Counted from the stretch's first letter, positions 1,861 through 24,000 are shown. The stretch: DNA of 24,000 nucleotides from Halorubrum sp. BV1 (GCF_000746205.1 NZ_JQKV01000001.1:143652-167651), one strand, 5' to 3'. Made by a program: numbers and translations. Notes: generated from the letters alone by a model not told the origin.

Positions 1861-1872
1861 CGTTCGGACGTG

Positions 1873-1880: not shown

Positions 1881-1905
1881 CCTCGCCGCGACCGGCTACT
1901 GATCA

Positions 1906-5535: not shown

Positions 5536-5591
5536 TCGGTGCGAGCGCCGACAGACGTCGTCTCAAGCGCGACAAAACGGAGGGGTCCCGG

Positions 5592-7577: not shown

Positions 7578-7739
7578 GGTCGACCGTATCGGCATTGCTC
7601 GTCCACCGAGCCGCCTCGCGACACCGAATCGTCGCGCTCAGGCCGAACGGCCGCATTCCACGGTCTCGCGGGATACGTGTGTCGGTAGCCCTGCTCGGTA
7701 CTGCTAGCAGTACGGTTATTTCCGCCTGCCCCGTGGCGA

Positions 7740-8510
7740 ATGGTGATGTCAACGGATCCCAGTTCTGACCTCGACGAACAGGTAGCGATCGTGACCGGCG
7801 CGTCGTCCGGGATTGGCGAGGCCACGGCCGAAGCTCTGGCTTCCCGGGGCGCGAGCGTTGTCCTCGCTGCTCGTCGCGAGAACGAACTCGACGCGCTCGC
7901 CGACAACATCGAGGCGGACGGAGGGACTGCGCTGTCCGTCCCGACCGATGTCACAGCGGAAGATGACATCGACGCACTCGTCGAATCGACGCTCGACGCG
8001 TTCGGATCGATTGATATCCTCGTGAACAACGCGGGCGTGATGCTCTTGGAACCCGTCGAGCGCGCCGACCGCGAGAACTTCCGGCAGATGGTCGAAGTGA
8101 ACTTGCTGGGGTTGATGAACCTCACCCACGCCGCCCTTCCGGTGATGCAAGAACAGGGCGCTGGTCACATCGTCAACATTTCGTCGACGGCCGGTCGGAA
8201 CGCGAACGCGAACAGTTCCGGATACAACGCGACGAAGTTCGGGGTCAACGCGTTCACCGAAGCCCTTCGTCAGGAGGTTACCACCGAAGGCGTCCGAACG
8301 ACGATCATCGAACCGGGCGCGGTCGACACCGAACTCCCGGATCACATTCCGGACGACGAGATCAAAGAACAGCTCGAAGCGGGCCTGCTCGACTCGATGA
8401 CGCCGCTCCAGAGCGAGGATATCGCACGCGCGATCACGTACGCCGTGACCCAACCGCAGCACGTCAGCGTCAACGAGATGCTCGTCCGGCCGACAGACCA
8501 GCAACGTTGA
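7740..8510 (+). CDS. Short-chain dehydrogenase/reductase (classical SDR family oxidoreductase)
   Basis: Carries VAIVTGASSGIGEATA (TGxxxGxG), NNAGV, SSTAG...YNATKF (catalytic S/YxxxK) and PGAVDTEL. Length 256 aa. Confidence 0.9.
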   Translation: MVMSTDPSSDLDEQVAIVTGASSGIGEATAEALASRGASVVLAARRENELDALADNIEADGGTALSVPTDVTAEDDIDALVESTLDAFGSIDILVNNAGVMLLEPVERADRENFRQMVEVNLLGLMNLTHAALPVMQEQGAGHIVNISSTAGRNANANSSGYNATKFGVNAFTEALRQEVTTEGVRTTIIEPGAVDTELPDHIPDDEIKEQLEAGLLDSMTPLQSEDIARAITYAVTQPQHVSVNEMLVRPTDQQR

Positions 8511-8950: not shown

Positions 8951-9057
8951 TGCATAGGTAGTCAGTCCAATCCTGTCTCTTTTGGCAGGTGATTTATGAA
9001 TGAGATTCTGTAGAGTACTTGGAGAACGAAACGCCCGAGAACTCAAGCGGAATATAC

Positions 9058-9739
9058 TCACTCCCAGGGTTTGGAGCGGGGCTTTGACGTGACAGATTCG
9101 TCGTCAAGCGCGCGAGTGGGGGCTATAGAGGCGTCCGAGAGTAACTCACAGGTCACGGAATGCCGCGTCAAAATCATCGTCTTCGAACCCGGTAGAGTCA
9201 ACATCTGCCTGTTCTTGGAGTCATCAATTTGTTCCACGAGTCGCCGGTATTCGTCATTCGGCTGGAGGTCTGACTCCGCTATCTCATTTTCAAGGACCGC
9301 CTTCGTCTGAAGCAACCGGTAGAGGTCGTCTACCGTTTCATCATACCGTTCCCGGGTTTGGCATTCGCTCGACCACGTCACGGATCTCGGCTTCCCCAAC
9401 CGGTTTGGTGATGTAGTCATCGAATCCCACCCCGATAACGTCGAAATCAGGTGTCACCGCCGAGACCATCACGACACGCGTTCCCATCTCTTGCTCACGG
9501 ATGCGCTTGAGCACCTCGTCACCAGACAGTCCAGGCATCCGCCGGTCCAAGAGGACAACATCGATCGTAGAATCAAAGATCTCGAGTGCCTCCTCTTCAT
9601 TATATGCGACCTCGACAAGATACTCATCCCGGAGCTATACAGCCATCAGATCGGCGAGGCCCTGATTATCGTCGACAATCAATACCCCTCCTGCGTTGCT
9701 CGATGTATCGTCACTTATCGGATTCCTCCGGGTCTGCAT
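9058..9739 (-). pseudogene. REC-HalX response regulator, disrupted by an in-frame TAG and a 1-nt frameshift
   Basis: My translation from the ATG at 9739 reads MQTRRNPISDDTSSNAGGVLIVDDNQGLADLMAV*LRDEYLVEVAYNEEEALEIFDSTIDVVLLDRRMPGLSGDEVLKRIREQEMGTRVVMVSAVTPDFDVIGVGFDDYITKPVGEAEIRDVVERM. The receiver signature residues are present (DD, LLD, S/T, K-P). The frame then stops at 9341. The HalX-like sequence (RERYDETVDDLYRLLQTKAVLENEIAESDLQPNDEYRRLVEQIDD) continues in another frame, the track ORF 9058..9420. The TAG is at 9635-9637. Confidence 0.75.
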
Positions 9740-12700
9740 CCTGCGTGTCGTCGGCTGTCCTCGACGAGGAATGAGGTTCGTCAGTGAACTCGACACCTGT
9801 GAATTCGAATCGCGCCCCGCCCGTACTACCGGAAGAGACAGTTACTTGCCAACCGTGAGCATCGGCGATCTGTTTCACGATATTCAGACCGAGACCCGTG
9901 CCCTGATCAGTCGTGTATCCCGGCTCGAAAAGCTGACCTCGGTCGCCTTCGGGGATGCCAGGGCCGTCGTCTTCGACGTAGAAGCCACGGTCTGAGTCAA
10001 GGTCTCCGATGGTGACAGCCACGTCCTCACCACCATGTTCGACCGCGTTTCGGAAGAGATTTTCTAGCAACTGTTTGAGCCGGGATCGGTCTGCCTGAAG
10101 TACGCTATCAGTCGTTGTGTGGATCTCGCTGTCGGTTGTTTCCACGTTCTGCCAACACTCATCGCTGAGAGCTTCGAGAGTGACTGCTTCGAAGTCCCCG
10201 ATGGCTTGTCCCGTCCGAAAGAGCGTTAATAAATCCTCGATGAGTGTCTCCATCCGCTCGTGCGCATGCTCGATCGCGTCGAGATGCTCGCTCTCACACT
10301 CTTTTTGAGCCTGCTGTCGCTCCCCTCGTGCAACGTTCAGCGGGTTCTGAAGGTCGTGTGACACGATGCTGGCAAAGTCGAACCGCTCGTTCCGGTGTTT
10401 GAGTTCCCGCACGTACTGTTTGCGTTCGGAAATATCGGGGCTGATTCCGATCATTCCGATAATCTCCCCATCCTCGTCACGGTACGGGTATTTGTTATCG
10501 AGGAAGACGTGCTCCTCGCCATCGATGAACCGGACCGTCTCCGCGGACATCTCCTCGCCAGACTCCATAACCTGCTTATCATCGGCACGAATGTCGGCTG
10601 CGCTTTCAGCGTCGAACAGGTCCTCGTCGTGTTTGCCGATAATCTCTTCGGGCGTATAACCGAACAGCTCAGCGCCGCTTTCATTAATGAACTGATAGTA
10701 GCCCTCTCTATCTTTGATATAGATCGCTTCAGACGTGTTCTGCACGATCGCCTCTAGTTGCCGGGTTTTCTCTGCTAATTTTTCTTCACGTTCGATGCGT
10801 TCGGAGATGTCCCGGAAGATGCCGTACGTGACTGGACCGTCCGGAAGCGGGACCGTCTCGACACTGATCTCGACTGGGACGTGGTCCCCGTTGTCGGTAA
10901 CTATATCGATGGGTGATCCATCGGGAAGTCGTCGCCTGGTTCCCCCCGTTTGAACGTGTTCCTCGAAGAGCTGCTGATAGAGGTCAGCCTGCTCGGAGGG
11001 ATGGAGCTCTGATTGATGCGAGCCGGTGATTTTGTCACTCGCCATCCCGAGCAAGGTTTCGGCAGCGTCGTTGACCTCGATAACTTCGCCCGTCTCGCCA
11101 TCGGCAACGAACACTGGATCCGGAGCCGCCCCAAGCAACGTTTCATACCGCTCTTTCAACTTTGAGAGTTCCTGTTCGCGCTCTTTGTGCTCGGAGATAT
11201 CCCGACAGACAATAAGATGCAAACCTGGGACGATATCATGTGTCACCGTCCACTCGACGATTCGTTCTGAACCATCCGGCCGAACCAACGTTGCAGTCTC
11301 GCGTTGCAGTCCGGAATCTCGATCATCTCTCGGAATATCACGGAACTCAAAACAATCAGTGGTAAATTCGTCGAACGATCGACCTACTACCTTTTCTTTT
11401 GGAAGACCAAAGAGGTTGGCGGTACTTTCATTCGCCCGGAGGGTCTGCCCCTCGTCGTCGACAATCATCAGCGTATCGGCTGTTTCCTCGAAGATACGCT
11501 GGAAGAGGTCTCCAGACTGCTGTCTGATCGGCACTATCTCGTTGGTATCGTCGCTCTCCGTCCCCTCTATGGACTGCGGGAGCGTTATTGTGATCGTCGT
11601 ACCTTCGTCGGAAACAGACGTTTCGATGTCTCCGCCGTGGCCCGTGACGACCCAATAGACCATCCAGAGACCGAGGCCTTCGCCGTGGATCAGCGGCTCT
11701 TCAGTTCCAGTTTCGAGTACCCGATATTCCTGTTCGGGGAGCCCTGGGCCATCGTCGGATATCTCTAATGTGATCGTTCCATGGTCGACTTCAGCGGAGA
11801 CGGTCACCCTGGGGGCGTCTGGGTGCTTGCACGCGTTTTCGATCAACTCGTGGAGCGCCGCTTTGAGGTTCTGATATCCCGATATTGGCACCTCATCTGG
11901 TCCAGTGACTTCTATCGAGGCTGCAGGATACTCGCCTTCGATATCCGCACTCACCTGACGGATCAACGTCATTACGTCGAACGATTGGCGTTCGACATTT
12001 TCCCCCAGGAAGACATCGAGTTCCGTCGCTTTCTCGGCGAGGGATACAATTCTGTCCATGGCGGAGATGACCTCACTTCCATCGATCGAATCGTCGTCGA
12101 GTTGGTCGACTATCATGTCCGTGTAGCCACGGATAACGTTGAACTCGTTGCGAATATTGTGTCGGAAGACTCTCAGCAGGACGGTGTTGAGCTGCTGTTG
12201 ACGGACGAGATTCTGTTCTCGTTTCTTTTGGTCGGTAATGTCGATGACGCCACCTCTGTAGCCCTTGATGGCTCCCTCGTCATCGGTGAGGGCGGTCACG
12301 CTGTCGGACACCCATCGAATCTCTCCATCAGCAGTTCGGACGCGATATTCGAACTGATCGAGTTCGCCGACCGACGTGAGGGTTTCAGAATACGTCGCAT
12401 ACGTGTCTGGATCCACAAATACCTCGTCTTCGATACTGTCTACCGCCGCGCACAGCTCCTCGCCACTCTCGTAGCCGAGCAGATCTGCAAACGCCGGATT
12501 CGCCATGGCATACTCGTCGAGTGTGGCAGTCGTCGTGTAGATGCCTTCGATTGCATTTTCAAAGAGCTGCTGATACTGTTCTTCCAGTTCCGAGGCGAGT
12601 TCCAGCGTGCCCCGGGTGGTTTTTTCCAGTTCTTCTTGCAGGGCTTCCTTTTCCTCAGTCCGTTGTTCCAATTGCATGGCTTCGATTTCGCGGCCGAGGA

Positions 12701-13181
12701 GGCGTGCAACCAGTTCGATGAACAGCTTCTCCTCGGTAGTAAATCCCTCCTCCCGAGGCGTTCGTTGGATAAAACAGACAGTCCCGTAGACCTCTCCACG
12801 CACGAACATCGTGGTTCCGAGATAACAATCGATGTCGTGTTCCTTGTAGGCCGGATCGTTTTGCCATCCCTGCTCTGGGGCATTCGAAATCGCAACGGGC
12901 GAGGGCTCCTGAACCGTATGGCGACAGTAGGTTTTGTCGCGGTCGAGCCTGGTTCCTTCCGGGAGCAGATCGGAATCATTGCCGACGCTGACAAGTATCT
13001 CGTCAGTTGTACTATCGTTGGGATGGCGCTGGATGTGGCCATTTGTGACTCCGAGATACTCTCTGCCTATTGCGAGGACGTGCCGTTGTTTCTCCTCTAA
13101 CGCCAATTCGTCATCATCCATCACCTCGTAGATCCGCTGGGTTGGTGGCGTTTTGTCCGCCGAGCCATTCTTAGTAGTCAT
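9711..13181 (-). CDS. Multidomain sensor histidine kinase with two complete transmitter modules. Order: GAF-like, coiled coil, PAS, HisKA/HATPase_c, three PAS, HisKA/HATPase_c.
   Basis: 1156 aa. GAF-like: TYCRHTV...CYLGTTMFVRGEVYGTVCFIQRTPRE. First H-box: LRVFRHNIRNEFNVIRGY (His341, codon 12159-12161), with N-box HELIENACKH, G1 DDGPGLP and G2 GEGLGLWMV. Three PAS-like segments follow (residues ~555-925). Second H-box: FASIVSHDLQNPLNVA (His942, codon 10356-10358), with ENLFRNAVEHGG, DDGPGIP and GTGLGLNIV. Confidence 0.9.
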   Translation of the reverse strand: MTTKNGSADKTPPTQRIYEVMDDDELALEEKQRHVLAIGREYLGVTNGHIQRHPNDSTTDEILVSVGNDSDLLPEGTRLDRDKTYCRHTVQEPSPVAISNAPEQGWQNDPAYKEHDIDCYLGTTMFVRGEVYGTVCFIQRTPREEGFTTEEKLFIELVARLLGREIEAMQLEQRTEEKEALQEELEKTTRGTLELASELEEQYQQLFENAIEGIYTTTATLDEYAMANPAFADLLGYESGEELCAAVDSIEDEVFVDPDTYATYSETLTSVGELDQFEYRVRTADGEIRWVSDSVTALTDDEGAIKGYRGGVIDITDQKKREQNLVRQQQLNTVLLRVFRHNIRNEFNVIRGYTDMIVDQLDDDSIDGSEVISAMDRIVSLAEKATELDVFLGENVERQSFDVMTLIRQVSADIEGEYPAASIEVTGPDEVPISGYQNLKAALHELIENACKHPDAPRVTVSAEVDHGTITLEISDDGPGLPEQEYRVLETGTEEPLIHGEGLGLWMVYWVVTGHGGDIETSVSDEGTTITITLPQSIEGTESDDTNEIVPIRQQSGDLFQRIFEETADTLMIVDDEGQTLRANESTANLFGLPKEKVVGRSFDEFTTDCFEFRDIPRDDRDSGLQRETATLVRPDGSERIVEWTVTHDIVPGLHLIVCRDISEHKEREQELSKLKERYETLLGAAPDPVFVADGETGEVIEVNDAAETLLGMASDKITGSHQSELHPSEQADLYQQLFEEHVQTGGTRRRLPDGSPIDIVTDNGDHVPVEISVETVPLPDGPVTYGIFRDISERIEREEKLAEKTRQLEAIVQNTSEAIYIKDREGYYQFINESGAELFGYTPEEIIGKHDEDLFDAESAADIRADDKQVMESGEEMSAETVRFIDGEEHVFLDNKYPYRDEDGEIIGMIGISPDISERKQYVRELKHRNERFDFASIVSHDLQNPLNVARGERQQAQKECESEHLDAIEHAHERMETLIEDLLTLFRTGQAIGDFEAVTLEALSDECWQNVETTDSEIHTTTDSVLQADRSRLKQLLENLFRNAVEHGGEDVAVTIGDLDSDRGFYVEDDGPGIPEGDRGQLFEPGYTTDQGTGLGLNIVKQIADAHGWQVTVSSGSTGGARFEFTGVEFTDEPHSSSRTADDTQDADPEESDK
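12222..12629 (-). repeat. Coiled-coil plus PAS cassette, copy A (paralogous to 14409..14816)
   Basis: LEKTTRGTLELASELEEQYQQLFENAIEGIYTTTATLDEYAMANPAFADLLGYESGEELCAAVDSIEDEVFVDPDTYATYSETLTSVGELDQFEYRVRTADGEIRWVSDSVTALTDDEGAIKGYRGGVIDITDQKK aligns without gaps to the kinase-2 segment. Most positions are identical. Confidence 0.85.
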
Positions 13182-13208
13182 CGGTTCAGGTCTCCCAGTA
13201 TGGTTTCG

Positions 13209-14969
13209 TCACCCATTATCCTCAGTGATAAGCAGGGGTGTGCCCCCACTGCCCGTGATTTCGAACCGTGCTCCACCGTCAGCTCCGTCCGTCACGTCAA
13301 TCTCCCACTGATGGGCTTCGACGATCCGCTTGACGATCGCCAGTCCGAATCCTGTTCCGCTCGAATTCGTTGTATATCCCTGCTCAAAGATGTCGTTCCG
13401 CGCCTCCGGCGGGATACCCGGTCCAGTGTCTTCGACGTAAAAGCCATCGTCCAACCGACCGACCGTGACGGTAACCGACTCACCACTGTGTTCGATGGCG
13501 TTCCGGAACAGATTTTCAAAGACTTCGACCAGCCGGCTTCGATCCGCTTCGAGGTGCCCGAGTGATTCAGTCCGGAGGGTGGCATTGGCTCTTGAAATTG
13601 AGTTCCACGCGTCGCGAGCGGTCTCTTCGAGGCGAATTGATTCGGTTTCCCCGACTGCCTTCCCTTGCCGTGAGAGTTCGAGAACATCCTCGATGATGGC
13701 TTCGATCCTATCAAGGGCTGTTTTTGCCGGGTCGAGATTGGTACTGTCACATTCCGCCTCTGCGAGGGCCACGCGTCCGTTTGCCACGTTCAGTGGATTC
13801 CGTATGTCATGAGAGATAATACTCGCAAACTCATCAAGACGGTCGCGTTCCCGGCGGAGCGTCGTTTCAGCCCGAATTTGGTAGAGGGCAGACGTCACAT
13901 GGTTGGCAAGCAAGTTGAGGAGTTCCTCATCATGGTCGTCGAATGCGTCTGGTTCGGTCGCAAACACCTGAATCAGACCTACGTCGTCAAGTGAGACGCC
14001 TAACAGTGCACGAAGATCCTTGCGTGCGTCCTCCCTCAGTCCCGGGGTTGCAGTTTTGGGGGAGTTGGATGAGTTATCTACGTTTACATCTAGTGGTGCC
14101 GTTCCTCGCATCTCGGTTACGTCATCCACGCGAAGAACCTCGTCAGATCGATAGGTTCGCCCGGCAAATCCAGTGTCAACTGGGACCGGATTGTACTGCT
14201 CCAGCGATTCATCACGCGAACTAGCGGTCGGGACAAGGTGATCGACTTCCGCAACGGCAAGATACACACTGGCACCGGGAAAGAGGGCGGCAGCACCGTC
14301 GACTGCACGCTGGTAAATTGCTGCTTCTGTGTCGGCATCAGCGATGTCAGTTGCAATCTCGTGAAGCTGAGTGACCTTGGACATGTGCTCCCGCAGTCGG
14401 TCTATCGCCTCTTTCCGCTCCGTGATGTCGATGACTCCACCTCTGAACCCGCTCATATCCTCCTGACTATCGGAGAGGGCGGTCACGTTATCCGAGACCC
14501 ACCGTATCTCGCCATCAACTGTTTTAACTCGATATTCGAACCGCTCAATCTCGCCCATAGACGATAGTAGCTCTGAACACGTTTCGTATCGGTCGGCGTC
14601 CACAAAGACGTCCTCCGCAATACTATCCACTGCCTCACAGAGTTTTTCACCGCTCTCGTAGCCGAGCAGGTCTGCAAACGCGGGGTTCGCCATGACATAC
14701 TCGTCAAGTGTGTCGGTGGTCGTGTAGATACCCTCTGCCGCCGTCTCGAAGAGCTGTTGGTACTGCTCTTCAAGCTCTGAGGCGAGTTGCAGCGTGCCTT
14801 GCGTCGTTTTCTCCAGTTCCGTGTGCAAGACCTCGTTTTCCTCGCGTAATCGTTCGTTTTCTGTCTGGAGTTCCCGCACTCGGTGGTTGATCGACTCCAG
14901 TGTGGGTTCTACCTCTGGGTCGGCACATGCTTTCGCGTTCTCCAAGAGTTGCTCGATCTGGTCAGTCAT
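13209..14969 (-). CDS. Sensor histidine kinase (coiled coil, PAS, GAF, HisKA, HATPase_c)
   Basis: The preferred start is the ATG at 14969 (MTDQIEQLLENAK...). It overlaps the upstream gene's end by 8 nt (ATGACTGA). The track start at 15002 is an alternative. The PAS is as in the repeat above. GAF-like region: IYQRAVDGAAALFPGASVYLAV...LLGVSLDDVGLIQVFATEPDAFDDHDEELLNLLANHV. H-box: EFASIISHDIRNPLNVA. HATPase_c: ENLFRNAIEHSG, EDTGPGIP, GTGFGLAIV. Confidence 0.9.
   Translation of the reverse strand: MTDQIEQLLENAKACADPEVEPTLESINHRVRELQTENERLREENEVLHTELEKTTQGTLQLASELEEQYQQLFETAAEGIYTTTDTLDEYVMANPAFADLLGYESGEKLCEAVDSIAEDVFVDADRYETCSELLSSMGEIERFEYRVKTVDGEIRWVSDNVTALSDSQEDMSGFRGGVIDITERKEAIDRLREHMSKVTQLHEIATDIADADTEAAIYQRAVDGAAALFPGASVYLAVAEVDHLVPTASSRDESLEQYNPVPVDTGFAGRTYRSDEVLRVDDVTEMRGTAPLDVNVDNSSNSPKTATPGLREDARKDLRALLGVSLDDVGLIQVFATEPDAFDDHDEELLNLLANHVTSALYQIRAETTLRRERDRLDEFASIISHDIRNPLNVANGRVALAEAECDSTNLDPAKTALDRIEAIIEDVLELSRQGKAVGETESIRLEETARDAWNSISRANATLRTESLGHLEADRSRLVEVFENLFRNAIEHSGESVTVTVGRLDDGFYVEDTGPGIPPEARNDIFEQGYTTNSSGTGFGLAIVKRIVEAHQWEIDVTDGADGGARFEITGSGGTPLLITEDNG
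14409..14816 (-). repeat. Coiled-coil plus PAS cassette, copy B (paralogous to 12222..12629)
   Basis: LEKTTQGTLQLASELEEQYQQLFETAAEGIYTTTDTLDEYVMANPAFADLLGYESGEKLCEAVDSIAEDVFVDADRYETCSELLSSMGEIERFEYRVKTVDGEIRWVSDNVTALSDSQEDMSGFRGGVIDITERKE. The similarity is also visible in the DNA (compare 12590-12640 with 14780-14830). Confidence 0.85.
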
Positions 14970-15999
14970 TGGTATCGGTGACGACGAGTGCAGTAGCGTC
15001 ATCCTCCGATTTGCCGTACTGTTTGAGCAACCGGTTCGCTATCGCGCCAGCTGGGTCGTCCCCTCCATCTCGTATGTCGTCCCAGTCCCATCTCGTCGAA
15101 ATACCATCAGAATACAACACCATCGTGAATCCTGGATCCCACTCTCGGGTGACGACAGATGCTCCTGGATTATTGCCCCCCACGACGCCCCGTCGGACGA
15201 TCAGCCCCGTCCATTCCGGGCCAGACAACTTCACATTGATATTTCCTATGTTGGCAAAGGTGAGCGTATGCTCCCTCCAGTCGAACTTCGCGAGTGCCAT
15301 CACGACGCCGCGTGTCCCCTTGCACGCGCGGTCAGCTCCGCGAAAGATTGACGCAAGCGGCCGCTCGACGTGTGACTCGACGTAGCTACGAGCTGTGGTC
15401 GCTGCTTTGTGCGCCCGGGATCCATGCCCGAGGCCGTCGATAACGCCCACCAGCGTCTTGTCATTCCACGTCTTGGCGATGAAGGCGTCACCGTTGACCT
15501 GCTCGGTGGAGATGGCCCGTGATGCAGCCCCAATTGAGGCGGGATTCGGCTTCGTTGTCTCATATTCCGGGATTAGCCACCGATCTGCGACCAGTCGCGT
15601 TCCAGCCTCGGGGCCTTCCGGGGTCGTGACCTCGAGTTCGTCCATCGTTTGATTCACGATGGAGAGGCCGAGCCCGAGCGAGCCAGCGGTCGAAGATCCC
15701 GTCGTGAATGCCGCTTCAATATCTTGGATCCCGGGGCCGGAATCTTCTGATTCAAGCCGAATTCCCGTCTGTGAATCTGCCGCAATTGTTTTGATCGAAA
15801 GTGTTCCGCCCCCGGCGTGTTTATCTAGGTTCGTCGCCAGTTCCGTCGCAACGAGTCCGAGTTCAGAGCTGATATCGTCCTCAAACCCTATCTCGGCTGC
15901 CGTCTGTTCTACCGTATGTTGTGCCCTGGTGGCATCAGCTGACTCGGAAATATCGATGTCGGTTTCAGTAGTAACAACGAGGTCGTCCGGTCTGCTCAT
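14962..15999 (-). CDS. ATP-binding SpoIIE/PP2C-family protein phosphatase: an N-terminal RsbT/RsbW-like HATPase domain fused to an RsbX-like PP2C domain
   Basis: True start is the ATG at 15999 (MSRPDDLVVTTETDIDISES...). The track ORF's 110-aa upstream extension to 16329 overlaps the rsbT-like gene out of frame. N-terminal domain: VATELATNLDKHAGGGTL, SEDSGPGI, TGSSTAGSLGLGLSIV. C-terminal domain: NGDAFIAKTWNDKTLVGVIDGLGHGSRAH...ANIGNINV...VLYSDGIS, the SpoIIE/RsbX-type motifs. Confidence 0.85.
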   Translation of the reverse strand: MSRPDDLVVTTETDIDISESADATRAQHTVEQTAAEIGFEDDISSELGLVATELATNLDKHAGGGTLSIKTIAADSQTGIRLESEDSGPGIQDIEAAFTTGSSTAGSLGLGLSIVNQTMDELEVTTPEGPEAGTRLVADRWLIPEYETTKPNPASIGAASRAISTEQVNGDAFIAKTWNDKTLVGVIDGLGHGSRAHKAATTARSYVESHVERPLASIFRGADRACKGTRGVVMALAKFDWREHTLTFANIGNINVKLSGPEWTGLIVRRGVVGGNNPGASVVTREWDPGFTMVLYSDGISTRWDWDDIRDGGDDPAGAIANRLLKQYGKSEDDATALVVTDTND

Positions 16000-16018
16000 C
16001 GTGATCGGCTCCGTCCTG

Positions 16019-16423
16019 TCATGAGTGCCACTTTGTGATCGTGATTGTCGTGCCCTCTCCTTGTTCCGTGTCGATCTCCATGTCGTCCATGAGCGTCTGT
16101 GTTCCGGACAGCCCACGGCCCAACCCATCCGACGTCGAAAATTCCCCCTCAAGCGCTGCGTCGGGATCGTCGATGCCTGGCCCCTGATCCTCGAAGATGA
16201 CCGTGAGACCGGTTCGATCGTCGTCGGTGATATGCTTCCATTCCATCGTTCCCTCACCGGCGTAAAGGTGGATGTTCCGGGCGAGTTCCGAGACAGCCGT
16301 GACGATCCGCGTGATATCCGTGGTGTCAAACCCGACTTGCTCAGCGGCGTCTCGGGCTTGTTGACGGGTCTGGAGCACGTCAGTTTCGGACTGGATCTCT
16401 ACTCGACCGGAGCCCTCGCTCAT
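16019..16423 (-). CDS. rsbT: RsbT-like anti-sigma-regulatory-factor-type serine/threonine protein kinase (HATPase_c_2)
   Basis: MSEGSGRVEIQSETDVLQTRQQARDAAEQVGFDTTDITRIVTAVSELARNIHLYAGEGTMEW...IFEDQGPGIDDPDAALEGEFSTSDGLGRGLSGTQTLMDDMEIDTEQGEGTTITITKW. This closely follows my memory of B. subtilis RsbT (ISELARNIYLYAG, DQGPGI, GFSTSGGLGAGLPG, LMDEF, GEGT.I...KW). Its ATG at 16423 overlaps the upstream stop as ATGA. Confidence 0.85.
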   Translation of the reverse strand: MSEGSGRVEIQSETDVLQTRQQARDAAEQVGFDTTDITRIVTAVSELARNIHLYAGEGTMEWKHITDDDRTGLTVIFEDQGPGIDDPDAALEGEFSTSDGLGRGLSGTQTLMDDMEIDTEQGEGTTITITKWHS

Positions 16424-16788
16424 GAGGGATCCCAACTTACTCCCAACATTTCGAGTGCATGATCGGTCGACCGGGCAGTCTCAACTGCATCCAACCGGTA
16501 TCCGAGTTCTGCAGCGGTCACAGCGACTTCCGGGCGGATCCCGGCAATCACTGTCGTCCCGCCCATGAGTTCGATCATCTGAGCCGTCTCCGAGATATGC
16601 CGGGCGAAAAACGAATCCATCAGTTGCACGTTGGACACGTCGAGGATGACGCCCTCAGGCTGGCTGGTTTCCATTTCTGCCAAGATCGCCTCTTGTAACT
16701 CGTCGACCACCGGGTCAGTCGGGTTGTTGGGAAACGTCCCCAACAGGATATCGTAGATTCGAACGACATTCGCGCTACCAGCCGACAT
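16420..16788 (-). CDS. rsbS: RsbS-like single-STAS-domain stressosome scaffold protein
   Basis: 122 aa: VVRIYDILLGTFPNNPTDPVVDELQEAILAEMETSQPEGVILDVSNVQLMDSFFARHISETAQMIELMGGTTVIAGIRPEVAVTAAELG. It parallels B. subtilis RsbS as I recall it (VIDLTSVDMIDSFIAK...[26 protein letters not shown]). The phospho-acceptor-equivalent Ser is at residue 59 (codon 16612-16614). Confidence 0.85.
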   Translation of the reverse strand: MSAGSANVVRIYDILLGTFPNNPTDPVVDELQEAILAEMETSQPEGVILDVSNVQLMDSFFARHISETAQMIELMGGTTVIAGIRPEVAVTAAELGYRLDAVETARSTDHALEMLGVSWDPS

Positions 16789-17567
16789 CAGTCGAACGAT
16801 ACCCCCGCAATATCGAGCGCGGTTTTGAGGCCTTCCTGAAGCGACGATTGTGTTTCCACGTCGAATCCAATTCCGAGCTGCACGAGTGTCTGGGAGATCT
16901 CTGGATTGAGTCCCGTGATGATTGTCTGACCGCCCATCAGTTTGACGGCGTGGATCGTATCGATAAGATGTTGGGCGGTCTGGGTGTCAACCGCCTCCGC
17001 ACCGGTAATATCGATGATCGCGACAGTGGCTTCCGTTTCTGAAATCCGTTCCAGGAGCTTCTCAGTGAAATCTTGGGCCTGTGCCGAGTCGAGTTTCCCG
17101 ATGATCGTCGAGAGCAAAATCCCGTCCCAGACCTCGACGATTGGCACTGATCGCTTGGCGAGTTCATCGGCCAACGACTCTTGAATCTCTCGTTGCCGAT
17201 TGCGCTCGGTGATGTTCCGACCGATACTGGCGATCGCTTTGAGACTTTCATCCTCGTCTTCAACGGGAGTCCACTGGAACTCGTACGGGAGCCGCTCTCC
17301 CGTCTTCGTTTCGAGAACAGTCCCAAGCGTGACGGCCGTCCGATCATTGGTGATAGTCTTTATAGCCGTGCGCACGTCCCCGCGCTCTCCCTCGGGGACG
17401 AGATCGGCGGGGTTGAGGTCCCCAATCTCGTTGTTGTCGTATCCTGTGACGCTTGTGAATCGAGCGTTCCACTCCACGTACTCGCCGCCGGGAGTGAATA
17501 CGTAGAACAGGTCATCAAGCGAATTGACAGCGTCTGCGAGTAACCCAGGATCCGAAGAATTGATCAT
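16788..17567 (-). CDS. rsbR: RsbR-like stressosome sensor protein (N-terminal PAS domain plus C-terminal STAS domain)
   Basis: The ATG at 17567 gives MINSSDPGLLADAVNSLDDLFYVFTPGGEYVEWNARFTSVTGY... (PAS). The STAS half is SVPIVEVWDGILLSTIIGKLDSAQAQDFTEKLLERISETEATVAIIDITGAEAVDTQTAQHLIDTIHAVKLMGGQTIITGLNPEISQTLVQLGIGF. That is RsbR-like, including the VDT and SQT threonines. Its stop overlaps the rsbS-like ATG by 1 nt (TGATG at 16786-16790). Confidence 0.85.
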   Translation of the reverse strand: MINSSDPGLLADAVNSLDDLFYVFTPGGEYVEWNARFTSVTGYDNNEIGDLNPADLVPEGERGDVRTAIKTITNDRTAVTLGTVLETKTGERLPYEFQWTPVEDEDESLKAIASIGRNITERNRQREIQESLADELAKRSVPIVEVWDGILLSTIIGKLDSAQAQDFTEKLLERISETEATVAIIDITGAEAVDTQTAQHLIDTIHAVKLMGGQTIITGLNPEISQTLVQLGIGFDVETQSSLQEGLKTALDIAGVSFD

Positions 17568-17670
17568 GGATACCAATTTATCCCCCTGGTTGATATAACC
17601 TCACGCTACTTATTTGGTATTAATTTAATCCATCACTAAATACATAACCTTCCGTTGAGAGCGATTATCT
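17568..17670. promoter_or_regulatory. Divergent AT-rich promoter region between the rsbR-like operon and the Bat-type regulator gene
   Basis: 103 bp. On the minus strand, TTATATCA (complement of 17591-17598) lies ~25-30 nt upstream of the ATG at 17567. On the plus strand, taaataca (about 17637-17644) lies ~27-30 nt upstream of the ATG at 17671. There is also an inverted repeat: ataccaa (17570-17576) and ttggtat (17614-17620). Confidence 0.45.
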
Positions 17671-19308
17671 ATGGCCGATACTGATCCCGGGGATAGGACA
17701 GAGCACAAATCCCTGTATAAAACTGCGGTAGAGCAGTCACCCGATGGGATATTTGCCTTGACGAACGATTTGGAACTGGCGTTAGTGAATAGACGGATTG
17801 AATCATTAGCCGGTGTTGAACGAGAGGAGTTGGTCGGGAGCCACGCGTCGGTTTTCCGCGAAATTGGGCTCGTAGATGGAGCCAATTACGACCGGGCAAT
17901 TGCCGCATGTAGAACGGTACTGGATGGTGACGCTGATTCGGAGCAATTTGAAATTCAACTCACGCCACAATCCGAACCGATCACCGCTGAGTATCGGGTT
18001 GAACGAGTGTCCCGCGAGGAGGAAAACGCGCTCTTGATTGGAGTGCTCCGGGACATCACCCCCCGGATCGAGCAACAAAAACAGATCAAACGCCAACGAA
18101 ACGAGCTCAAAACGGTTAGTCAGATCCAGTCATTACTCCACAATATAATGAAATCACTCCCGTCAAGCACGACGAGAGCGGAAATTAATCAAGTTGTGTG
18201 TAATCAGCTCATTCAATCAAGCTTCTATGATGCTGCATGGATGGGATACAAAGGGCCTCAAGAAGAAGGAGTCAGAGGCATCTATACCGCAGGGGTGGAG
18301 CCTGGTCTCCAAGAGTTCATCACGACTCGTGAGATGGGCCGGGACGGAGCGTCAATTCTGAGCGAGGCGTTCGATACTGAACACATCCAAGTGATCAGTA
18401 GTCCGGCGACGGATCCGAGACTTCCCGATCAATTTCGAGATCAGCTTGTCCGCTATGGATATGAATCAGCGATTCTCGTCCCGCTCACAATCGATCATAT
18501 GTCGTTTGGAGTATTAATGGCCGCAACCCATCGAAAGAATGCGTTCATCAGTCGGGAACGGATGGCGTTCGAAGCGTTAGGAGGTGTCGTTGAATTTGCG
18601 GTGAATGCCGTCGAGAACGTCCAATTACTGCAGGGGGCGAAAATGGTCGAACTCAGATTCCAGATACAGACGGGTGCGATCGCTGCAGACATCTCTGATA
18701 CGTTCGATTGTGAGTGCTATCTTAATGGCATCTCACCCGCCCCTAACGACAACCTACGATGTTTTGTCTCCGTTGAGGATGCACCCACGGATGAGGTAGC
18801 TGTCTTTGCGGAACAACAAGCGGCGGTTCGAAGCGTCGAGGTGATCGACGAGTGGGAGTCGGGTGGGACGTTCGAGATCGTCTTGGGAACGTCCCCGTTG
18901 CAACCGCTCATTGACTCCGGGGTTTACATCGAGGGAGCTTCAGCGTCAGACGGAACCGCACACATATCAGTTCGTATCGGTGCAGATAGAGATCCGGTTG
19001 AGATCCTCGACAGGGTAGAATCGGTCTATCCGGAAATCGAACTCGTGAGCAAACAATTGGTAGAGGATACACGTCACCCCGTCTTTGAACTCAGTGGATG
19101 GGTAGGCGAACATCTCACGAGCAAACAACGTCAGGCGTTGGAGGAGGCGTACTTTCGGGGCTATTTCGAGTGGCCCCGCGAGAACACTGCAGAGGAGATC
19201 GCTGAAGCCCTAGGCGTCTCGTCCGCTACGTTTCACGCCCATCATCGCAAGGCGACTCAGAAACTCCTCTCAGCGGTGTTTGAAAAGAGCACAGAGCGGG
19301 AGATGTAG
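17671..19308 (+). CDS. Bat-type (bacterio-opsin-activator-like) transcription regulator: PAS, GAF, BAT domain, HTH_10
   Basis: 545 aa. PAS: YKTAVEQSPDGIFALTNDLELALVNRRIESLAGVEREELVGSH...IGVLRDITPR. GAF-like: VCNQLIQSSFYDAAWMGY...ESAILVPLTIDHMSFGVLMAATHRKNAF. C-terminal HTH_10 signature: LTSKQRQALEEAYFRGYFEWPRENTAEEIAEALGVSSATFHAHHRKATQKLL. Confidence 0.85.
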   Translation: MADTDPGDRTEHKSLYKTAVEQSPDGIFALTNDLELALVNRRIESLAGVEREELVGSHASVFREIGLVDGANYDRAIAACRTVLDGDADSEQFEIQLTPQSEPITAEYRVERVSREEENALLIGVLRDITPRIEQQKQIKRQRNELKTVSQIQSLLHNIMKSLPSSTTRAEINQVVCNQLIQSSFYDAAWMGYKGPQEEGVRGIYTAGVEPGLQEFITTREMGRDGASILSEAFDTEHIQVISSPATDPRLPDQFRDQLVRYGYESAILVPLTIDHMSFGVLMAATHRKNAFISRERMAFEALGGVVEFAVNAVENVQLLQGAKMVELRFQIQTGAIAADISDTFDCECYLNGISPAPNDNLRCFVSVEDAPTDEVAVFAEQQAAVRSVEVIDEWESGGTFEIVLGTSPLQPLIDSGVYIEGASASDGTAHISVRIGADRDPVEILDRVESVYPEIELVSKQLVEDTRHPVFELSGWVGEHLTSKQRQALEEAYFRGYFEWPRENTAEEIAEALGVSSATFHAHHRKATQKLLSAVFEKSTEREM

Positions 19309-19532
19309 GTTATCGACAGGGCGAAGACGGGAACCTGTCCGGATGCCCCCGACGGGCGATCTATTGGAAAACGCCCCATACGGGGTGACAGAGCCAGCAG
19401 ATCCCGGATGTTCTTGAGGCAAACACAATTTCACTACCACTGGTGCCACCGACACAGGCTTCACGATGAGCCGTCTTCCGGACAATTGCGACAACCACCT
19501 ATAGCGATTGCCCTGTCTACGACTCGACGCCG

Positions 19533-21104
19533 TTGTACGATCGGAGTTCACTCGCTGGCCTCGAAGAAGACATCCGAACCGTTGCGGCCACCTGGTTTGA
19601 CCACGAGGCCCACGACTCTGTCACCGAATTCGTCGCTCACTACCCGTTGACGTATGTCGAATTTCGCCCCGACGACCGGTATTCGAGAGCAACGCGATAC
19701 GAGATGGCGCAGCTGCTCCGCGCGTTCCTGCTCAAAGAAATTCACGGCTGGACCCACGAGACGGCACTCGCCACGTACCTCACCCAACGCCCAAAACTCC
19801 GTGAGCAACTGTGTCTGGAGATGGTCCCAGACCAATCGACGCTCTGGCGCAGCTGGCACGAGCGGTTCACCACTGACCTCCGGAAGTCAGTCGAGACGGT
19901 GGCTCGAATGATCCTCATCAAAGCTCAGGATGCGGGTGTCGCGGTTCCGCGTGAACCGGCACGAAAGCTCCAGCATCACGATGGCAAGTCTGGTGAGTCA
20001 GAATCAGACGATCAAACCACGTTGGAGCAGGCAGCGAAGCTCACCGACCACGTCAGCCGTATCGTCTTCCCGGCGTTTTCGCTGGATCGTGGGGACGGCT
20101 GTGAGATACATGAGAACGCCTACTGGGGATTACAGACGTATCTCGGACTTCGCGAGCAGCTGGCTGCGAACGAAGGAGCTCGCAGTTTCGTCTACGAATC
20201 GACTCGGGATCGGACACCGCTGGGGCACGCCCATCGCGACCACATCCGCGACCTCTCTATCGAGCAGATTCGCGAGATGTACCGACAGGCGATCCGGCAC
20301 CTCATCGGCGAGGTCGCAGAGACAGAGCAGTTCTTCCAGGCGGGTATTGTCGCCATCGACATCACTGAGGCCGATCCCTTCACCGGCAATAGAACGGGCT
20401 ACGAGGACGAGATCATCGGGACGAAAGAACAGACCGACGAGTACGCGTACCAGTGGGCGACAGTCCAGCTGGTCGGCAACGCCGTCCCGCTCGTCCTTGA
20501 TGCCCGCCCGGTACGGAAAGGCGAGAGTCGGAAGGACATCGTTGAGGACTTGCTGGATTCGGCTGAAGAGCTCGTCCACGTCGATAACGTGCTGATGGAC
20601 CGGGAGTTCGATAGCCAGCACGTCCTAGAGATGATCAGCCAGCGCGGGCTTTCCTACGTCGTTCCGAAGCGGATGCAGACCAGCGAAAAAGCTCAGGCAA
20701 AGCGGTTGCTCCAGCGCGATCAAGACCGATACGAGACCGACCGTAAACTCCATCTGGGGAAGAACGAGTGGCACGAGACGACGCTGATCTACCGCCGGAA
20801 AGAAGACTCTGAGCACGACGACCATCGACAGTACTCGGTGTTCATGTCAAACCGAGGTGGTAGCTTCCTCACTGAGTATAGGTATCGGTGGGAGATTGAG
20901 AGCGGCTATAGGTCGATCAAGCGGTTCATGGCCGCGACGACGTCTACGGATTTCGGACTGCGATTCTTCTACTTCGCGTTCGCGTGCCTCTTATACTCAA
21001 TCTGGCGAGCGATCGATCTACTCGTGCAGGCCGAGTTGACTGGAGAATACGAACGGTCACCGATGCTGACTGCAGATAATACACTCACGCTGTTGAAGAA
21101 ATAG
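19533..21104 (+). CDS. IS4-superfamily (haloarchaeal ISH-type) DDE transposase
   Basis: 523 aa. Candidate DDE residues lie in GIVAIDITE, VLMDREFDS and YRYRWEIESGYRSIKRF. The last fits the IS4 Y-(2)-R-(3)-E-(6)-K signature exactly. The track start is a TTG, so the true start is uncertain. Confidence 0.85.
   Translation: MYDRSSLAGLEEDIRTVAATWFDHEAHDSVTEFVAHYPLTYVEFRPDDRYSRATRYEMAQLLRAFLLKEIHGWTHETALATYLTQRPKLREQLCLEMVPDQSTLWRSWHERFTTDLRKSVETVARMILIKAQDAGVAVPREPARKLQHHDGKSGESESDDQTTLEQAAKLTDHVSRIVFPAFSLDRGDGCEIHENAYWGLQTYLGLREQLAANEGARSFVYESTRDRTPLGHAHRDHIRDLSIEQIREMYRQAIRHLIGEVAETEQFFQAGIVAIDITEADPFTGNRTGYEDEIIGTKEQTDEYAYQWATVQLVGNAVPLVLDARPVRKGESRKDIVEDLLDSAEELVHVDNVLMDREFDSQHVLEMISQRGLSYVVPKRMQTSEKAQAKRLLQRDQDRYETDRKLHLGKNEWHETTLIYRRKEDSEHDDHRQYSVFMSNRGGSFLTEYRYRWEIESGYRSIKRFMAATTSTDFGLRFFYFAFACLLYSIWRAIDLLVQAELTGEYERSPMLTADNTLTLLKK
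19533..21104 (+). mobile_element. Insertion sequence. Only the transposase ORF is delimited; the terminal inverted repeats are not resolved.
   Basis: An intact transposase ORF is flanked by non-coding AT-richer sequence (19309-19532 and 21105-21410). I could not identify convincing terminal IRs or target-site duplications by eye. Confidence 0.6.
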
Positions 21105-21410
21105 GCAGGAATCGGGTAGTAGACTGCTCTATCCGTGATAGAGCGTCGTCTAAGTGGCAACGCTACCGAAAGTTTCGAAAAAACCGCCCACATAGTAGGA
21201 AATCCAACAAGAATGGCCGTTTGGAGAGCGATCTGAAGCAGATTCCACTCATCAATTCAGTCGGAACCACGCATCATAGCCCCGCTAAACCCGCTATAGT
21301 CTCAACTTCCAAGTATCAAAAGTTAATATCGCGAAATACGGTTTATTTGATCCGGGCTGACCAGAATTCTGACCACCCAGCCAGTCGAAATTCGTCGGTA
21401 CGTCCCGAGT

Positions 21411-22445
21411 TCACTCGAGTAGCGAATACATATTTCTCTCGTACGTCTCGCGAACTTGGTTCCCCCAATCGTGCGTGTACGTGTCGATTATGTCGTCGGC
21501 GACGTCACCGCGGAGGTACTTGACCACTCCCCGGTCGCCGGTTCGGTCCCGGAGGTGCGTGGTGAAGAAGTGTCGAAAGTAGTGTGGAGTGACGTTTTCA
21601 GTGGCCCCGCCGCCGGTTCGATACCACCCGGCATCTCGGGCGTATCGTTCGACGATGTGCCGCACCGCCTGGGGGTCGAGTCGCGACCCCCATCCCTCTG
21701 CGGTGCCGACAAAGAGCGGATCGGCCGACGAGGGGCAGTCCGGTCGGATCGCGAGCCACGCTTTGAGAACTCGCGCCAACTCGTCGTCAACGGGGATCAC
21801 GGTACTGCGCTTACGCTTGTTCGATGCCGAGCGGACCTCGTCGTTCAACGTTTCGCCAACGGTCGCATCAGGCGTCACGTACACCGAATTCGGCCGACCG
21901 GCGAGTACCGGTCTGGTTCCGAGATCGTACGCCTCGTTCAGCTCGTCGTCGTCGATCGCGACGTCGCGGAGATCGAGGTTACAGCACTCACCGACCCGCA
22001 TCCCGGTCTTCAAGAGCGTCACGACGAGAGCGCGGTGAAGCGGATGGGTGATGCCGGAGACGAACGTTCGCATCGCGGGAATCGAAATGTCCCGGCGGGC
22101 CGGGTCCGTGTCGATCGTTTCGTCCATCTCTTCGACGACAAGCGTCATCGGATTGCCGTCGAACGCGCCGACCTCGGTCATATACCCGTAGAATCGGTGC
22201 AGATACGCCGCGTACGTCGCTACCGTGCTGTCGGCGAGTTCACCTCGGAGCGAGTGAATGAACGCCATACAGTCGCGGTGCGTGGCCGTCTCGGGGGTGG
22301 ACGTCTCGTCGAGAAACGCCTCGAACTGCCGGAGCACGCGCTCGTACGACTCGCGCGTCCTCGACGTCTTCCCGTGATAGGTCAGATCTTCGATGAAATA
22401 CTCAACCGGATCGTCGATATCGGCGGGGGCACGCGTGCTACTCAT
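21411..22445 (-). CDS. Tyrosine recombinase / phage-type integrase (XerC/D-like)
   Basis: 344 aa. N-terminal SAM-like core-binding region: YFIEDLTYHGKTSRTRESYERVLRQFEAFL. Catalytic region: LLKTGMRVGECCNLDLRDV (Arg I), TPHYFRHFFTTHL (HxxR), GVVKYLRGDVADDIIDTYTH (candidate nucleophile Tyr). Confidence 0.9.
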   Translation of the reverse strand: MSSTRAPADIDDPVEYFIEDLTYHGKTSRTRESYERVLRQFEAFLDETSTPETATHRDCMAFIHSLRGELADSTVATYAAYLHRFYGYMTEVGAFDGNPMTLVVEEMDETIDTDPARRDISIPAMRTFVSGITHPLHRALVVTLLKTGMRVGECCNLDLRDVAIDDDELNEAYDLGTRPVLAGRPNSVYVTPDATVGETLNDEVRSASNKRKRSTVIPVDDELARVLKAWLAIRPDCPSSADPLFVGTAEGWGSRLDPQAVRHIVERYARDAGWYRTGGGATENVTPHYFRHFFTTHLRDRTGDRGVVKYLRGDVADDIIDTYTHDWGNQVRETYERNMYSLLE

Positions 22446-22815
22446 CGACGAGCGCGTATCCCCCTCGCCGGCCGTTGTATTTGATGCGGTTCCGATCCTG
22501 CAACTCGTCGAGTGCGTCCTCTAAGCGATCTTCGAAGTCGCCGCGCAGCGCGTCGACGAGTTCGTCCCACGACTGCGGTCCGTCAGCAAGAACCCGTTCC
22601 ACCTCTGTTTCGAGGTCGTGACTCCCGGGGGTTTCGTCCGTGGAAGCGGTCTCCTCGGTGCTCGACGGTTCCGAGAGAGAAAATCCACGTCTCCCGGCCT
22701 GTACCATCGTTCTGACGAACTCGCTTTGCGACATGTCCAGCTCGTTCGCGTGAGTCTGCCACCGATCTTTCTGCTCGGCGGGCACGTACGTTTTCACTGA
22801 ACGGCGATCACTCAT
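22438..22815 (-). CDS. Small DNA-binding protein (ribbon-helix-helix-like N-terminus, winged-helix-like C-terminus), co-transcribed with the integrase
   Basis: The ATG at 22815 gives MSDRRSVKTYVPAEQKDRWQTHANELDMSQSEFVRTMVQAG (CopG/RHH-like). An acidic linker follows, then WDELVDALRGDFEDRLEDALDELQDRNRIKYNGRRGGYALV. An 8-nt overlap (ATGAGTAG) joins it to the integrase start. Confidence 0.65.
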   Translation of the reverse strand: MSDRRSVKTYVPAEQKDRWQTHANELDMSQSEFVRTMVQAGRRGFSLSEPSSTEETASTDETPGSHDLETEVERVLADGPQSWDELVDALRGDFEDRLEDALDELQDRNRIKYNGRRGGYALVDE

Positions 22816-22848
22816 CTCGATGTACCGTTTTGCGGCCGGTACCTTCAA

Positions 22849-23020
22849 TTTACCCCATAATTCAGGATAAGTGACTTTATCTGTGGTTGTAGTACCTTCT
22901 AGATGACGGGGATAACTAGTTATATTGAATTATAGAACTATAAGCGCAGCAAACTGTTCCTAGATTATAGGATATATTACTGCTGCAAAATACTATGTCA
23001 TATGTTTGTATGTTTGTCAG
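22849..23020. promoter_or_regulatory. Very AT-rich non-coding region upstream of the RHH-integrase pair, with a palindrome and a tandem repeat
   Basis: Perfect 12-bp palindrome ataactagttat (22912-22923). Tandem atgtttgt atgtttgt (23002-23017). The motif attatag occurs twice (about 22928 and 22963). On the minus strand, a TAAATT-like element lies ~35 nt upstream of the ATG at 22815. Confidence 0.4.
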
Positions 23021-23708
23021 CCGGAGCCAGCGTGACCGGAGATGGTCGCCGGACGGCGTGTCTCCACAGACAGCCCGATCGCTGGCGCGAATGAATCGTG
23101 CGTCGCACTGGAAAGTACGACAACTCGCTTGTGGGACTCAAGATGCGCTCGATCGATGTGAGCGTCGCGCATCGCTGTCTCTCTCCGTCTTCAAAATAAT
23201 CTGAATGATCCGACATATTATTGGTTAATAGATATGTGTTCTGCAACCTCGACGTACTCATCTGAGCGTGCTGTGTAGGGTGGCTGTCCGGGAAACGGGC
23301 GGTAGAAGGACAACGAGAAACGCTCTCGCTGGTGTCTGTCTCACTACCCGTATCGTTCTATTTCTGACCGTATACGCCGTTGTTCGGCTTATTTCGATGG
23401 CGACAGATACACGCACGATCAGTCAGCGTGGCGGATCTTCTAAGTGATTCTACTCGCCTAGACTGTCGGTTCGTCTCGTGATCAGAGCCAATTCATCCGA
23501 CGAATTGGAAACCAGAACAATATCTGAAAACGAGAGGTCGGAGATTGAGTGACGAGTGAAGATCTACTAACCGCGATACAAGGCGACCGTTCGGGTGTGT
23601 CCAGATCGCGTTGGGCCTGTTCGCGTCTGGGTCTTTTTTACACCGCTGTTTCGGTCGCTGCTCACACAGCACTATTTGTGGCACACACGCCAAGTATATT
23701 GTATAGTG

Positions 23709-23998
23709 CTATACAAACGAACCTGGCCTTGATGAATCGTTCGAGCCGCTTTCGACCGTCTCGCGGAGATCTCGCATGAAGCGCTCGTTTCAGCTGCGCC
23801 ACAGTCTCGATTGATCGGGCACCGTCCCCAACTCTAAGCGCTTACAGAGTGTGGAGTGGCTACCGAGGTACTCGAGAAGTGCTGTTTCGTGTTCCCGCCC
23901 GTGGATTCCTCGTCCTCTGTACCGAGTCGCTGGTTGAACAGGGCGGTCGCTCGTTCGTACCCGCTGTATCCGTCGAACCGCTCTGTGTCGTCGGTCAT
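23709..23998 (-). pseudogene. Degraded N-terminal fragment of a second ISH-type transposase, homologous to the 19533..21104 copy
   Basis: My minus-strand translation reads MTDDTERFDGYSGYERATALFNQRL.... It then shifts frame to ...GIHGREHETALLEYLGSHSTLCKRLELGTVPDQSRLWRS*NERFMRDLRETVESG. Compare the intact copy: FRPDDRYSRATRYEMAQLL...EIHGWTHETALATYLTQRPKLREQLCLEMVPDQSTLWRSWHERFTTDLRKSVETV. An in-frame TGA (23790-23792) replaces the conserved Trp codon. Homology is lost after about residue 130 of the intact protein. Confidence 0.6.
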
Positions 23999-24000
23999 CG

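Follow-up and report, generated by a model that had tools for sequence, protein, structure and literature searches.

The locus described here raises the question of whether a gene for a Bat-type regulator, placed head-to-head with a stressosome-like operon across a spacer of 103 bp, controls that operon or is simply located next to it. Bacterial stressosomes are well studied, and their signal ends at a sigma factor or at a two-component system. The window, meaning the whole stretch of 24,000 nucleotides that was analysed, belongs to a haloarchaeal genome of 2.77 Mb, 99.99% complete, from the family that also contains Halopenitus and Halonotius.

Genes of the locus

The regulator gene is located at 17671..19308 on the plus strand and encodes a protein of 545 amino acids with the architecture PAS-GAF-BAT-HTH_10; no in-frame start was found farther 5'. 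In the Pfam search the HTH_10 domain (PF04967, residues 482-533) reached 64.6 bits against a cut-off of 23.1, and the BAT domain (PF15915, residues 325-468), situated between GAF and HTH_10, reached 105.6 bits against a cut-off of 25.8. The sensor domains identified were PAS_4 (33.7 bits, cut-off 23.1) and GAF (24.7 bits, cut-off 22.4), with GAF_2 scoring slightly below its cut-off (27.4 versus 28.6 bits). The protein thus belongs to the large haloarchaeal Bat/HTH_10 family of one-component transcription factors, which is restricted to the Halobacteria (PMC5847659). As judged on a search of 401 genomes and on the scanned neighbouring genes, it is apparently not Bat proper, being neither a likely orthologue of the bop activator nor linked to bop, brp or crtB1. 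Among these 401 Halobacteria genomes no orthologue of the protein was identified, the best match being 38% identical over part of the length, and its close relatives are only two (86% and 84% identical) among 5.8 billion proteins. Comparison with three full-length relatives indicates purifying selection on the intact regulator genes (dN/dS 0.27-0.29). No opsin or retinal genes were identified by Pfam among the scanned genes of the window, Pfam detected neither a receiver nor a STAS-like docking domain in the regulator, and no related solved structures were found. A sensor common to the PAS domains of the regulator and those of the operon was considered and discarded, there being no special similarity between them. 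The genome contains 9 HTH_10 genes.

The operon is located on the minus strand and begins with the rsbR-like gene (16788..17567), which encodes a PAS-STAS protein of 259 amino acids (Pfam STAS 58.1 bits, PAS_4 47.3 bits). The rest of the operon (9711..16788) comprises, according to Pfam, rsbS, a single-STAS protein (16420-16788); rsbT, a HATPase_c_2 kinase (16019-16435); a HATPase_c_2+PP2C (SpoIIE) fusion (14962-16329); and two histidine kinases, kinase 2 (13209-15002) and kinase 1 (9711-13181). The core is that of a stressosome (RsbR-RsbS-RsbT) gene module, formed by a sensor-STAS protein, a single-STAS protein and an RsbT-type HATPase_c_2 kinase in this order, which is shared by about 30 haloarchaeal loci. 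As expected for RsbX, a SpoIIE/PP2C domain (35.8 bits) lies directly downstream, yet it is fused to a second HATPase_c_2 domain. RsbR as a LOV-type photoreceptor was ruled out, since the YtvA model did not reach its cut-off and RsbR lacks the cysteine motif.

The G+C content is 63-70% over bases 1-8000 versus 52-58% over bases 9001-24000, and a DDE transposase and a tyrosine integrase are encoded within the low-G+C part (Pfam), so the whole locus belongs to a foreign, mobile stretch. An IS element (19509..21340, plus strand) with a DUF772/DDE transposase identified by Pfam (19533-21104) is found about 200 bp 3' of the regulator gene, and the same IS comes after Bat in the related loci L063, L064, L065 and L156. 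That the regulator gene is a passenger of this IS was ruled out: a second genomic copy of the element matches only 19509-21340, and the Bat gene is therefore outside the IS and not its cargo.

The shared spacer

The preliminary description had placed the Bat-type start at 17671, the rsbR-like start at 17567 on the opposite strand, and between them an AT-rich spacer of 103 bp with TATA-like elements for both genes. Pfam and the coordinates agree with this; the spacer (17568..17670) has 36% G+C, and an A/T-rich hexamer is present about 28 bp before each start codon. Its length of 102-103 bp is kept in L064, L065, L146, L151 and L157. On the rsbR side the putative promoter element is the hexamer TTATAT (17593..17598, minus strand), 26-31 bp before the start; each of the seven aligned relatives has an A/T-rich hexamer at this position, even where the Bat gene is dead. 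On the other side the TATA-like sequence AAATACATAA (17638-17647, plus strand) lies 24-33 bp before the Bat ATG. These proximal elements, each centred about 28 bp before its start codon, are about 47 bp apart, a spacing that fits back-to-back archaeal core promoters, their promoter function being putative. A second candidate element for Bat, TTAATTTAAT (17620..17629, plus strand), is a stronger A/T run 43-52 bp before the start and is mostly conserved among relatives; if used, it would yield a leader of about 20 nt. The start codon of rsbR is ATG in the window; among the seven close relatives whose spacer is 102-103 bp long, six have GTG. Leaderless initiation and GTG are a poor fit, as known from work on Haloferax, so the leaderless spacing proposed earlier for both genes is not to be assumed for rsbR.

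The 40 bp directly 5' of the Bat start (17631..17670, plus strand), which contain AAATACATAA, form a conserved block in the alignment of relatives. Where the Bat gene is intact or recently broken, the block differs at 1-3 of 40 positions (2.5-7.5%), versus 21-24% at the synonymous sites of Bat (binomial P 0.001-0.008, in tests that count related sequences as independent). Where Bat is an old pseudogene, the differences rise to 11/40 (27.5%) in L151 and 5/40 (12.5%) in L156, and the middle 30 bp of the spacer, including the right arm of the inverted repeat described below, present 13/30 and 14/30 differences, respectively. L151 is no more diverged than the others over Bat codons 1-96 (25/288 differences, versus 25-37/288 in the other relatives). 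The 33 bp proximal to rsbR are poorly conserved throughout, with 24-42% differences.

The block thus decays where Bat is long dead and the operon genes are present and unbroken, which argues that it serves Bat and not rsbR. The comparison shows that purifying selection acts on the 40-70 bp beside the Bat gene only as long as that gene is alive. The block is the putative promoter or operator of Bat, and the same pattern is equally expected if it is merely Bat's own promoter. Since the operon genes of L151 and L156 are unbroken despite the decay of both Bat and the block, transcription of rsbR cannot strictly need either of them. A search of the genome for further copies of the conserved spacer blocks, allowing up to 3 mismatches, identified none, and thus no regulon. 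A direct repeat, ATAACCT (17595 and 17644), was dropped from consideration because it is not conserved in L064.

Distribution of the pairing and loss of the regulator

Of 401 sampled Halobacteria genomes, 15 encode RsbR-like proteins, and no such protein was found in the window's own genus (51 genomes). The set of loci for comparison comprised the survey loci and the haloarchaeal species representatives from an RsbR profile search. At about 25 other haloarchaeal rsbRST loci, inspected over 10 kb to each side, no divergent Bat-type gene was found; these belong to Halopenitus sp. H-Gu1, Halovenus marina, four Halonotius, Halorientalis brevis, Halodesulfurarchaeum sp. HSR-GB (two copies), several Salinarchaeum and Halobacteriales MAGs, and Saliphagus. 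The nearest genome is that of Halopenitus sp. H-Gu1; there, the DNA upstream of rsbR is unrelated to that of the window and contains a SAM-hydroxide-adenosyltransferase-like gene and a transposase in place of a divergent Bat.

Most close relatives of the locus are short metagenomic contigs. L064 and L065, both of metagenomic origin, contain rsbT-rsbS-rsbR, the 103-bp gap, an intact Bat gene and then the IS. L146, which has the closest rsbRST core (RsbR 89%, RsbS 96%), presents the 103-bp gap followed by Bat codons 1-312 up to the contig end, and L063 has an intact Bat gene with just 70 bp of upstream DNA on the contig. Unrelated DNA is found 5' of rsbR in L147, L148, L149, L150 and Halopenitus. 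In a maximum-likelihood tree built on 1.4 kb of rsbR-rsbS-rsbT the sequences fall into two well-supported sub-clades, and Bat or a remnant of it is present in both, so the pairing is ancestral to the clade. The head-to-head linkage of the Bat gene with the rsbR-rsbS-rsbT-PP2C-kinase operon therefore arose in the common ancestor of these few low-G+C mobile islands. The divergent arrangement is kept in some relatives (L064, L065 and L146) but absent from most genomes that bear the operon.

Disruptions of the regulator are of several kinds. In L151-L155 (five loci from five runs; seven contigs were read) the homology to Bat stops after codon 96, leaving a stub of 110 amino acids, and the six operon genes on the contig are all unbroken, the last one running off the contig end. 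L156 has an internal deletion of 1238 bp in Bat (window 17689-18926), with an out-of-frame remnant and the IS still adjoining. In L157 the homology breaks at window position 17798 (codon 43), 30 nt before the contig end, which may represent an insertion. The pairing was disrupted independently at least three times and replaced two or three times, which makes five or six losses, and the operon persisted. This repeated loss indicates that the regulator is dispensable and the link optional; the Bat-like factor would regulate the operon only locally and optionally, if at all. Three points speak against the earlier suggestion of a dedicated activator: most genomes with the operon lack the pairing, an outcome that the preliminary description itself had named as refuting; the regulator has been broken at least three times beside unbroken operon genes; and the inverted repeat is at chance level and not well conserved.

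The divergence between the window and its close relatives is not uniform along the locus. Values of dS are 0.24-0.28 for Bat, 0.21-0.23 for the transposase and 0.38 for the N-terminus of kinase 1, versus 0.70-0.87 for rsbR, 1.0-1.1 for rsbT and 1.4 to about 4.0 for rsbS (the top value being saturated). The rsbRST core of the window is nearer to Halopenitus (dS 0.50-0.65). This contrast indicates that the core cassette was swapped between island variants by recombination. One breakpoint is located in or beside the spacer, and the Bat flank retained the exact junction.

Relation between the regulator and the operon

The reading preferred here, with a probability of roughly 0.45, is that the Bat-like protein acts as an accessory and dispensable local regulator whose gene would share back-to-back promoters with the operon. 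The spacer would be composed of two back-to-back archaeal core promoters, and the conserved block would be Bat's own promoter and probably its operator. Seen from rsbR, the block would occupy the region 35-100 bp upstream, where archaeal activators act. Bat itself is encoded beside its targets bop and brp. DmsR is encoded beside its target, the dms operon (PMC1447603). Together, the putative promoters, the position of the block and the location of these relatives beside their targets make autoregulation with modulation of the operon the most likely function: the factor would most likely regulate its own gene through the conserved block, and would probably also modulate transcription of the divergent operon on a signal sensed by its PAS/GAF domains. 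The functional link put forward in the preliminary description is retained in this reduced form. The recurring spacer of 102-103 bp, the dN/dS of about 0.27 and the factor found in Saliphagus (see below) are in its favour, but the losses, the absence of the pairing elsewhere and a repeat at chance level are not.

The losses with the operon kept, five or six in number, are also compatible with a second explanation, which is possible although less probable than local regulation: the two units would be neighbours by descent, carried on the same mobile island with two independent promoters, and the factor would control only itself or unlinked genes. Mere neighbours would likewise account for a spacer conservation that follows Bat and not rsbR, for the chance-level repeat and for the low dS of Bat and the IS (0.21-0.28) compared with rsbR, rsbS and rsbT (0.70 to about 4.0, saturated at the top), which points to partly separate histories. 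Three observations fit it poorly, however. HTH_10 genes are rare (9 per genome), yet one of them is found 103 bp from rsbR; the exact junction outlasted the exchange of the rsbRST core; and a Bat-family gene is found independently inside the operon of Saliphagus.

In four Saliphagus genomes a GAFx3-BAT-HTH_10 gene of 825 codons is located directly after the PP2C fusion, as the last gene of the operon. Other haloarchaea have a kinase gene at this position. The Saliphagus gene is co-directional with the operon, and its reading frame starts before the fusion gene has ended. Orthologues of this factor (91-100% identical) were identified only in 4 of 9 sampled genomes of the genus, those with the module, the next best match being 47%. 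Saliphagus has 39-43 HTH_10 genes, and by a rough estimate such genes represent 0.3-1% of all genes; with this rarity, two independent adjacencies among about 10 lineages are unlikely to arise by chance, according to an estimate made post hoc.

The Saliphagus gene suggests a third explanation, in which the Bat-like factor would be the output or target of the stressosome, with RsbT, the kinase-phosphatase fusion or the histidine kinases acting on it by phosphorylation or partner binding. If so, a GAF/PAS-BAT-HTH_10 protein would be the direct substrate or partner of RsbT or the fusion, and would replace the sigma-B cascade of Bacillus in organisms that are not known to have sigma factors. We consider this explanation unlikely for the window. 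The gene is divergent here and not downstream, the window factor is 30% identical to that of Saliphagus, no closer than any other paralogue, its PAS domain has no special likeness to the domains of the operon, it carries no receiver or STAS-like docking domain detectable by Pfam, and most operons have no such factor nearby. These points outweigh the position of the 825-amino-acid protein directly after the PP2C fusion and the restriction of its orthologues to the module-bearing genomes (4 of 9), as well as the known coupling of bacterial rsbRST modules to varied downstream outputs (PMC9237108, citing Pane-Farre 2005). The more general proposal, that Bat-family factors might serve as transcriptional outputs of haloarchaeal stressosomes, with their genes inside the operon of Saliphagus and divergent from it in this clade, is equally doubtful.

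The inverted repeat

The preliminary description had also pointed to an inverted repeat in the spacer. Its arms, ATACCAA (17570..17576) on the left and TTGGTAT (17614..17620) on the right, are exact complements, and the right arm is about midway between the two TATA-like elements. The repeat itself is at chance level in a single sequence: perfect inverted repeats of at least 7 bp occur in 24% of mononucleotide shuffles and 28% of dinucleotide shuffles of the spacer, and in 33% of the 103-bp tiles of the window. It is also poorly conserved, the outer 2 bp being gone in six of six relatives and the 7-mer not being maintained.

The inner five positions (ATACC/GGTAT) pair at 5, 4, 3, 4, 0 and 4 of 5 positions in the six relatives. 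Four cells have changed on both sides with complementarity retained, two of them from L151, whose left half is poorly aligned. For the four sequences that contain both arms, the covariation score was equalled in 29 of 500 shuffles, which is not significant; with seven sequences the figure is 2-17 of 500 depending on the measure, slid controls being lower, for a structure that was picked from one sequence. Covariation of the inner 5 bp is thus marginal. The right arm is degraded in two lineages with old Bat pseudogenes, and degradation extends to both arms where Bat is long dead. When the spacer alignment was folded with RNAalifold, the consensus did not include the ATACCAA/TTGGTAT helix; the program paired 17611-17618 with 17635-17642, plus the two coding 5' ends.

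That this repeat would be the operator by which the factor controls both promoters is the least probable of the explanations, because the midway position of the right arm, the pairing and two-sided changes of the inner 5 bp, the 2-17 of 500 shuffles with lower slid controls and the degradation of both arms with a dead Bat are offset by an expected chance occurrence in a quarter to a third of such sequences, by the loss of the outer 2 bp in all six relatives, by the non-significant result with four sequences (29/500) and the doubtful alignment behind two of the four compensatory cells (L151), by a distance of 44 bp between arm centres, unusual for one dimeric helix-turn-helix site, and by the fact that compensatory change is typical of a folded strand and not of a protein site, with no transcript expected across both arms.

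Comparison with known systems

In the literature searched no description was found of a stressosome linked to a Bat-family factor. The regulator resembles Bat of Halobacterium salinarum and the Bat/HTH_10 family, DmsR included, in having a C-terminal BAT and HTH_10 module after PAS and GAF sensors, and, as DmsR does beside dms (PMC1447603), it adjoins a candidate target operon. It differs from them in that none of the sampled proteins is its orthologue (best 38% in 401 genomes) and in that its neighbours are signalling genes and not opsin, retinal or respiratory genes.

It was already known that 'some archaeal species' have rsbRSTX modules and that such modules are coupled to two-component outputs (PMC9237108). 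In its gene order the operon is similar to the bacterial rsbRST(X) modules with non-sigma outputs, of the Vibrio vulnificus and Moorella type, in which R-S-T and a PP2C phosphatase are followed by two-component proteins (PMC9237108), and it shares with them a patchy distribution and mobile contexts. It differs in being archaeal, in the fusion of the phosphatase to a second RsbW/RsbT-like ATPase domain, and in the linked one-component transcription factor, divergent in the window and inside the operon in Saliphagus.

Divergent pairs of a regulator and an operon, such as those of bacterial LysR-type regulators and many archaeal one-component regulators, usually combine autoregulation with control of the neighbouring operon. 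The present pair is like them in its head-to-head arrangement, its spacing of about 100 bp and the conservation of the DNA proximal to the regulator. In contrast to them, the regulator was repeatedly lost here and the operon stayed, and no conserved operator common to both promoters was found.

Three aspects of the locus are of wider use. Two independent linkages of rsbRST to the Bat family represent a concrete and testable candidate for the step from stressosome to transcription in archaea. The lineages that lost the regulator provide natural 'knock-out' alleles to compare. Finally, the locus is an example of how conservation in a shared spacer can belong to only one of the two genes that flank it.

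Mosaic structure of the island

The island is a mosaic in which, judging from dS values, the rsbRST core cassette was swapped through recombination. The analysis covered window positions 9711-21104, compared with L065 and L064 (metagenomic contigs carrying a Bat-like gene beside rsbR) and the comparison sequence L030. The Bat-like gene (17671-19308, + strand), the IS element (19509-21340) and the N-terminus of kinase 1 presented dS values to relatives of 0.21-0.38, and rsbR/S/T values of 0.70 to about 4.0, the highest being saturated. The nearer match of the window rsbRST core was identified in Halopenitus sp. H-Gu1.

A variable component of the operon is kinase 2. It intervenes in the window (13209-15002), in L147/L149 and in L151; in L065 (1-2102) and L150 (1800-5030) the kinase-1 homologue comes immediately after the PP2C fusion.

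In contigs L151-L155 the Bat-like gene is reduced to a stub of 110 aa, a PAS fragment (L151:7210-7542) with 89% identity across 96 residues, and nitroreductase genes take the place of the remainder. The stub is retained in 7 contigs from several sequencing runs, and the adjoining operon genes are unbroken.

Coding starts around the spacer

The start codon of rsbR is ATG in the window (17567) and GTG in L146, L157, L151, L065, L156, L064, L150 and Halopenitus, a difference relevant to the question of a leaderless transcript. Consensus folding paired an 8-bp inverted repeat whose arms, at 17547-17554 and 17681-17688, fall within the first codons of rsbR and Bat respectively and flank the entire spacer. 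The arms are GGATCCGA with TCGGATTC in most relatives and CTGATCCC in the window, and may be just a product of like N-terminal peptides (S/T-D-P/S-G).

Modules in other haloarchaea

Halodesulfurarchaeum sp. HSR-GB contains the rsbRST-PP2C module twice in a single genome (contigs L013 and L014), each copy followed by a giant multi-PAS kinase of 1572-1689 aa. Its RsbR copies share 61-62% identity with the window RsbR. A Cdc6/Orc1 gene lies near one module copy, which suggests a replicon origin or plasmid setting for it.

The Saliphagus operon (L038:9630-14609; also L039, L040 and L042) comprises RsbR, RsbS, RsbT, the HATPase_c_2+PP2C fusion and a GAFx3-BAT-HTH_10 protein of 825 aa, whose orthologues are confined, among the genomes sampled, to those bearing the module. 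In these four genomes the transcription factor occupies the slot held by a histidine kinase in other haloarchaeal operons.
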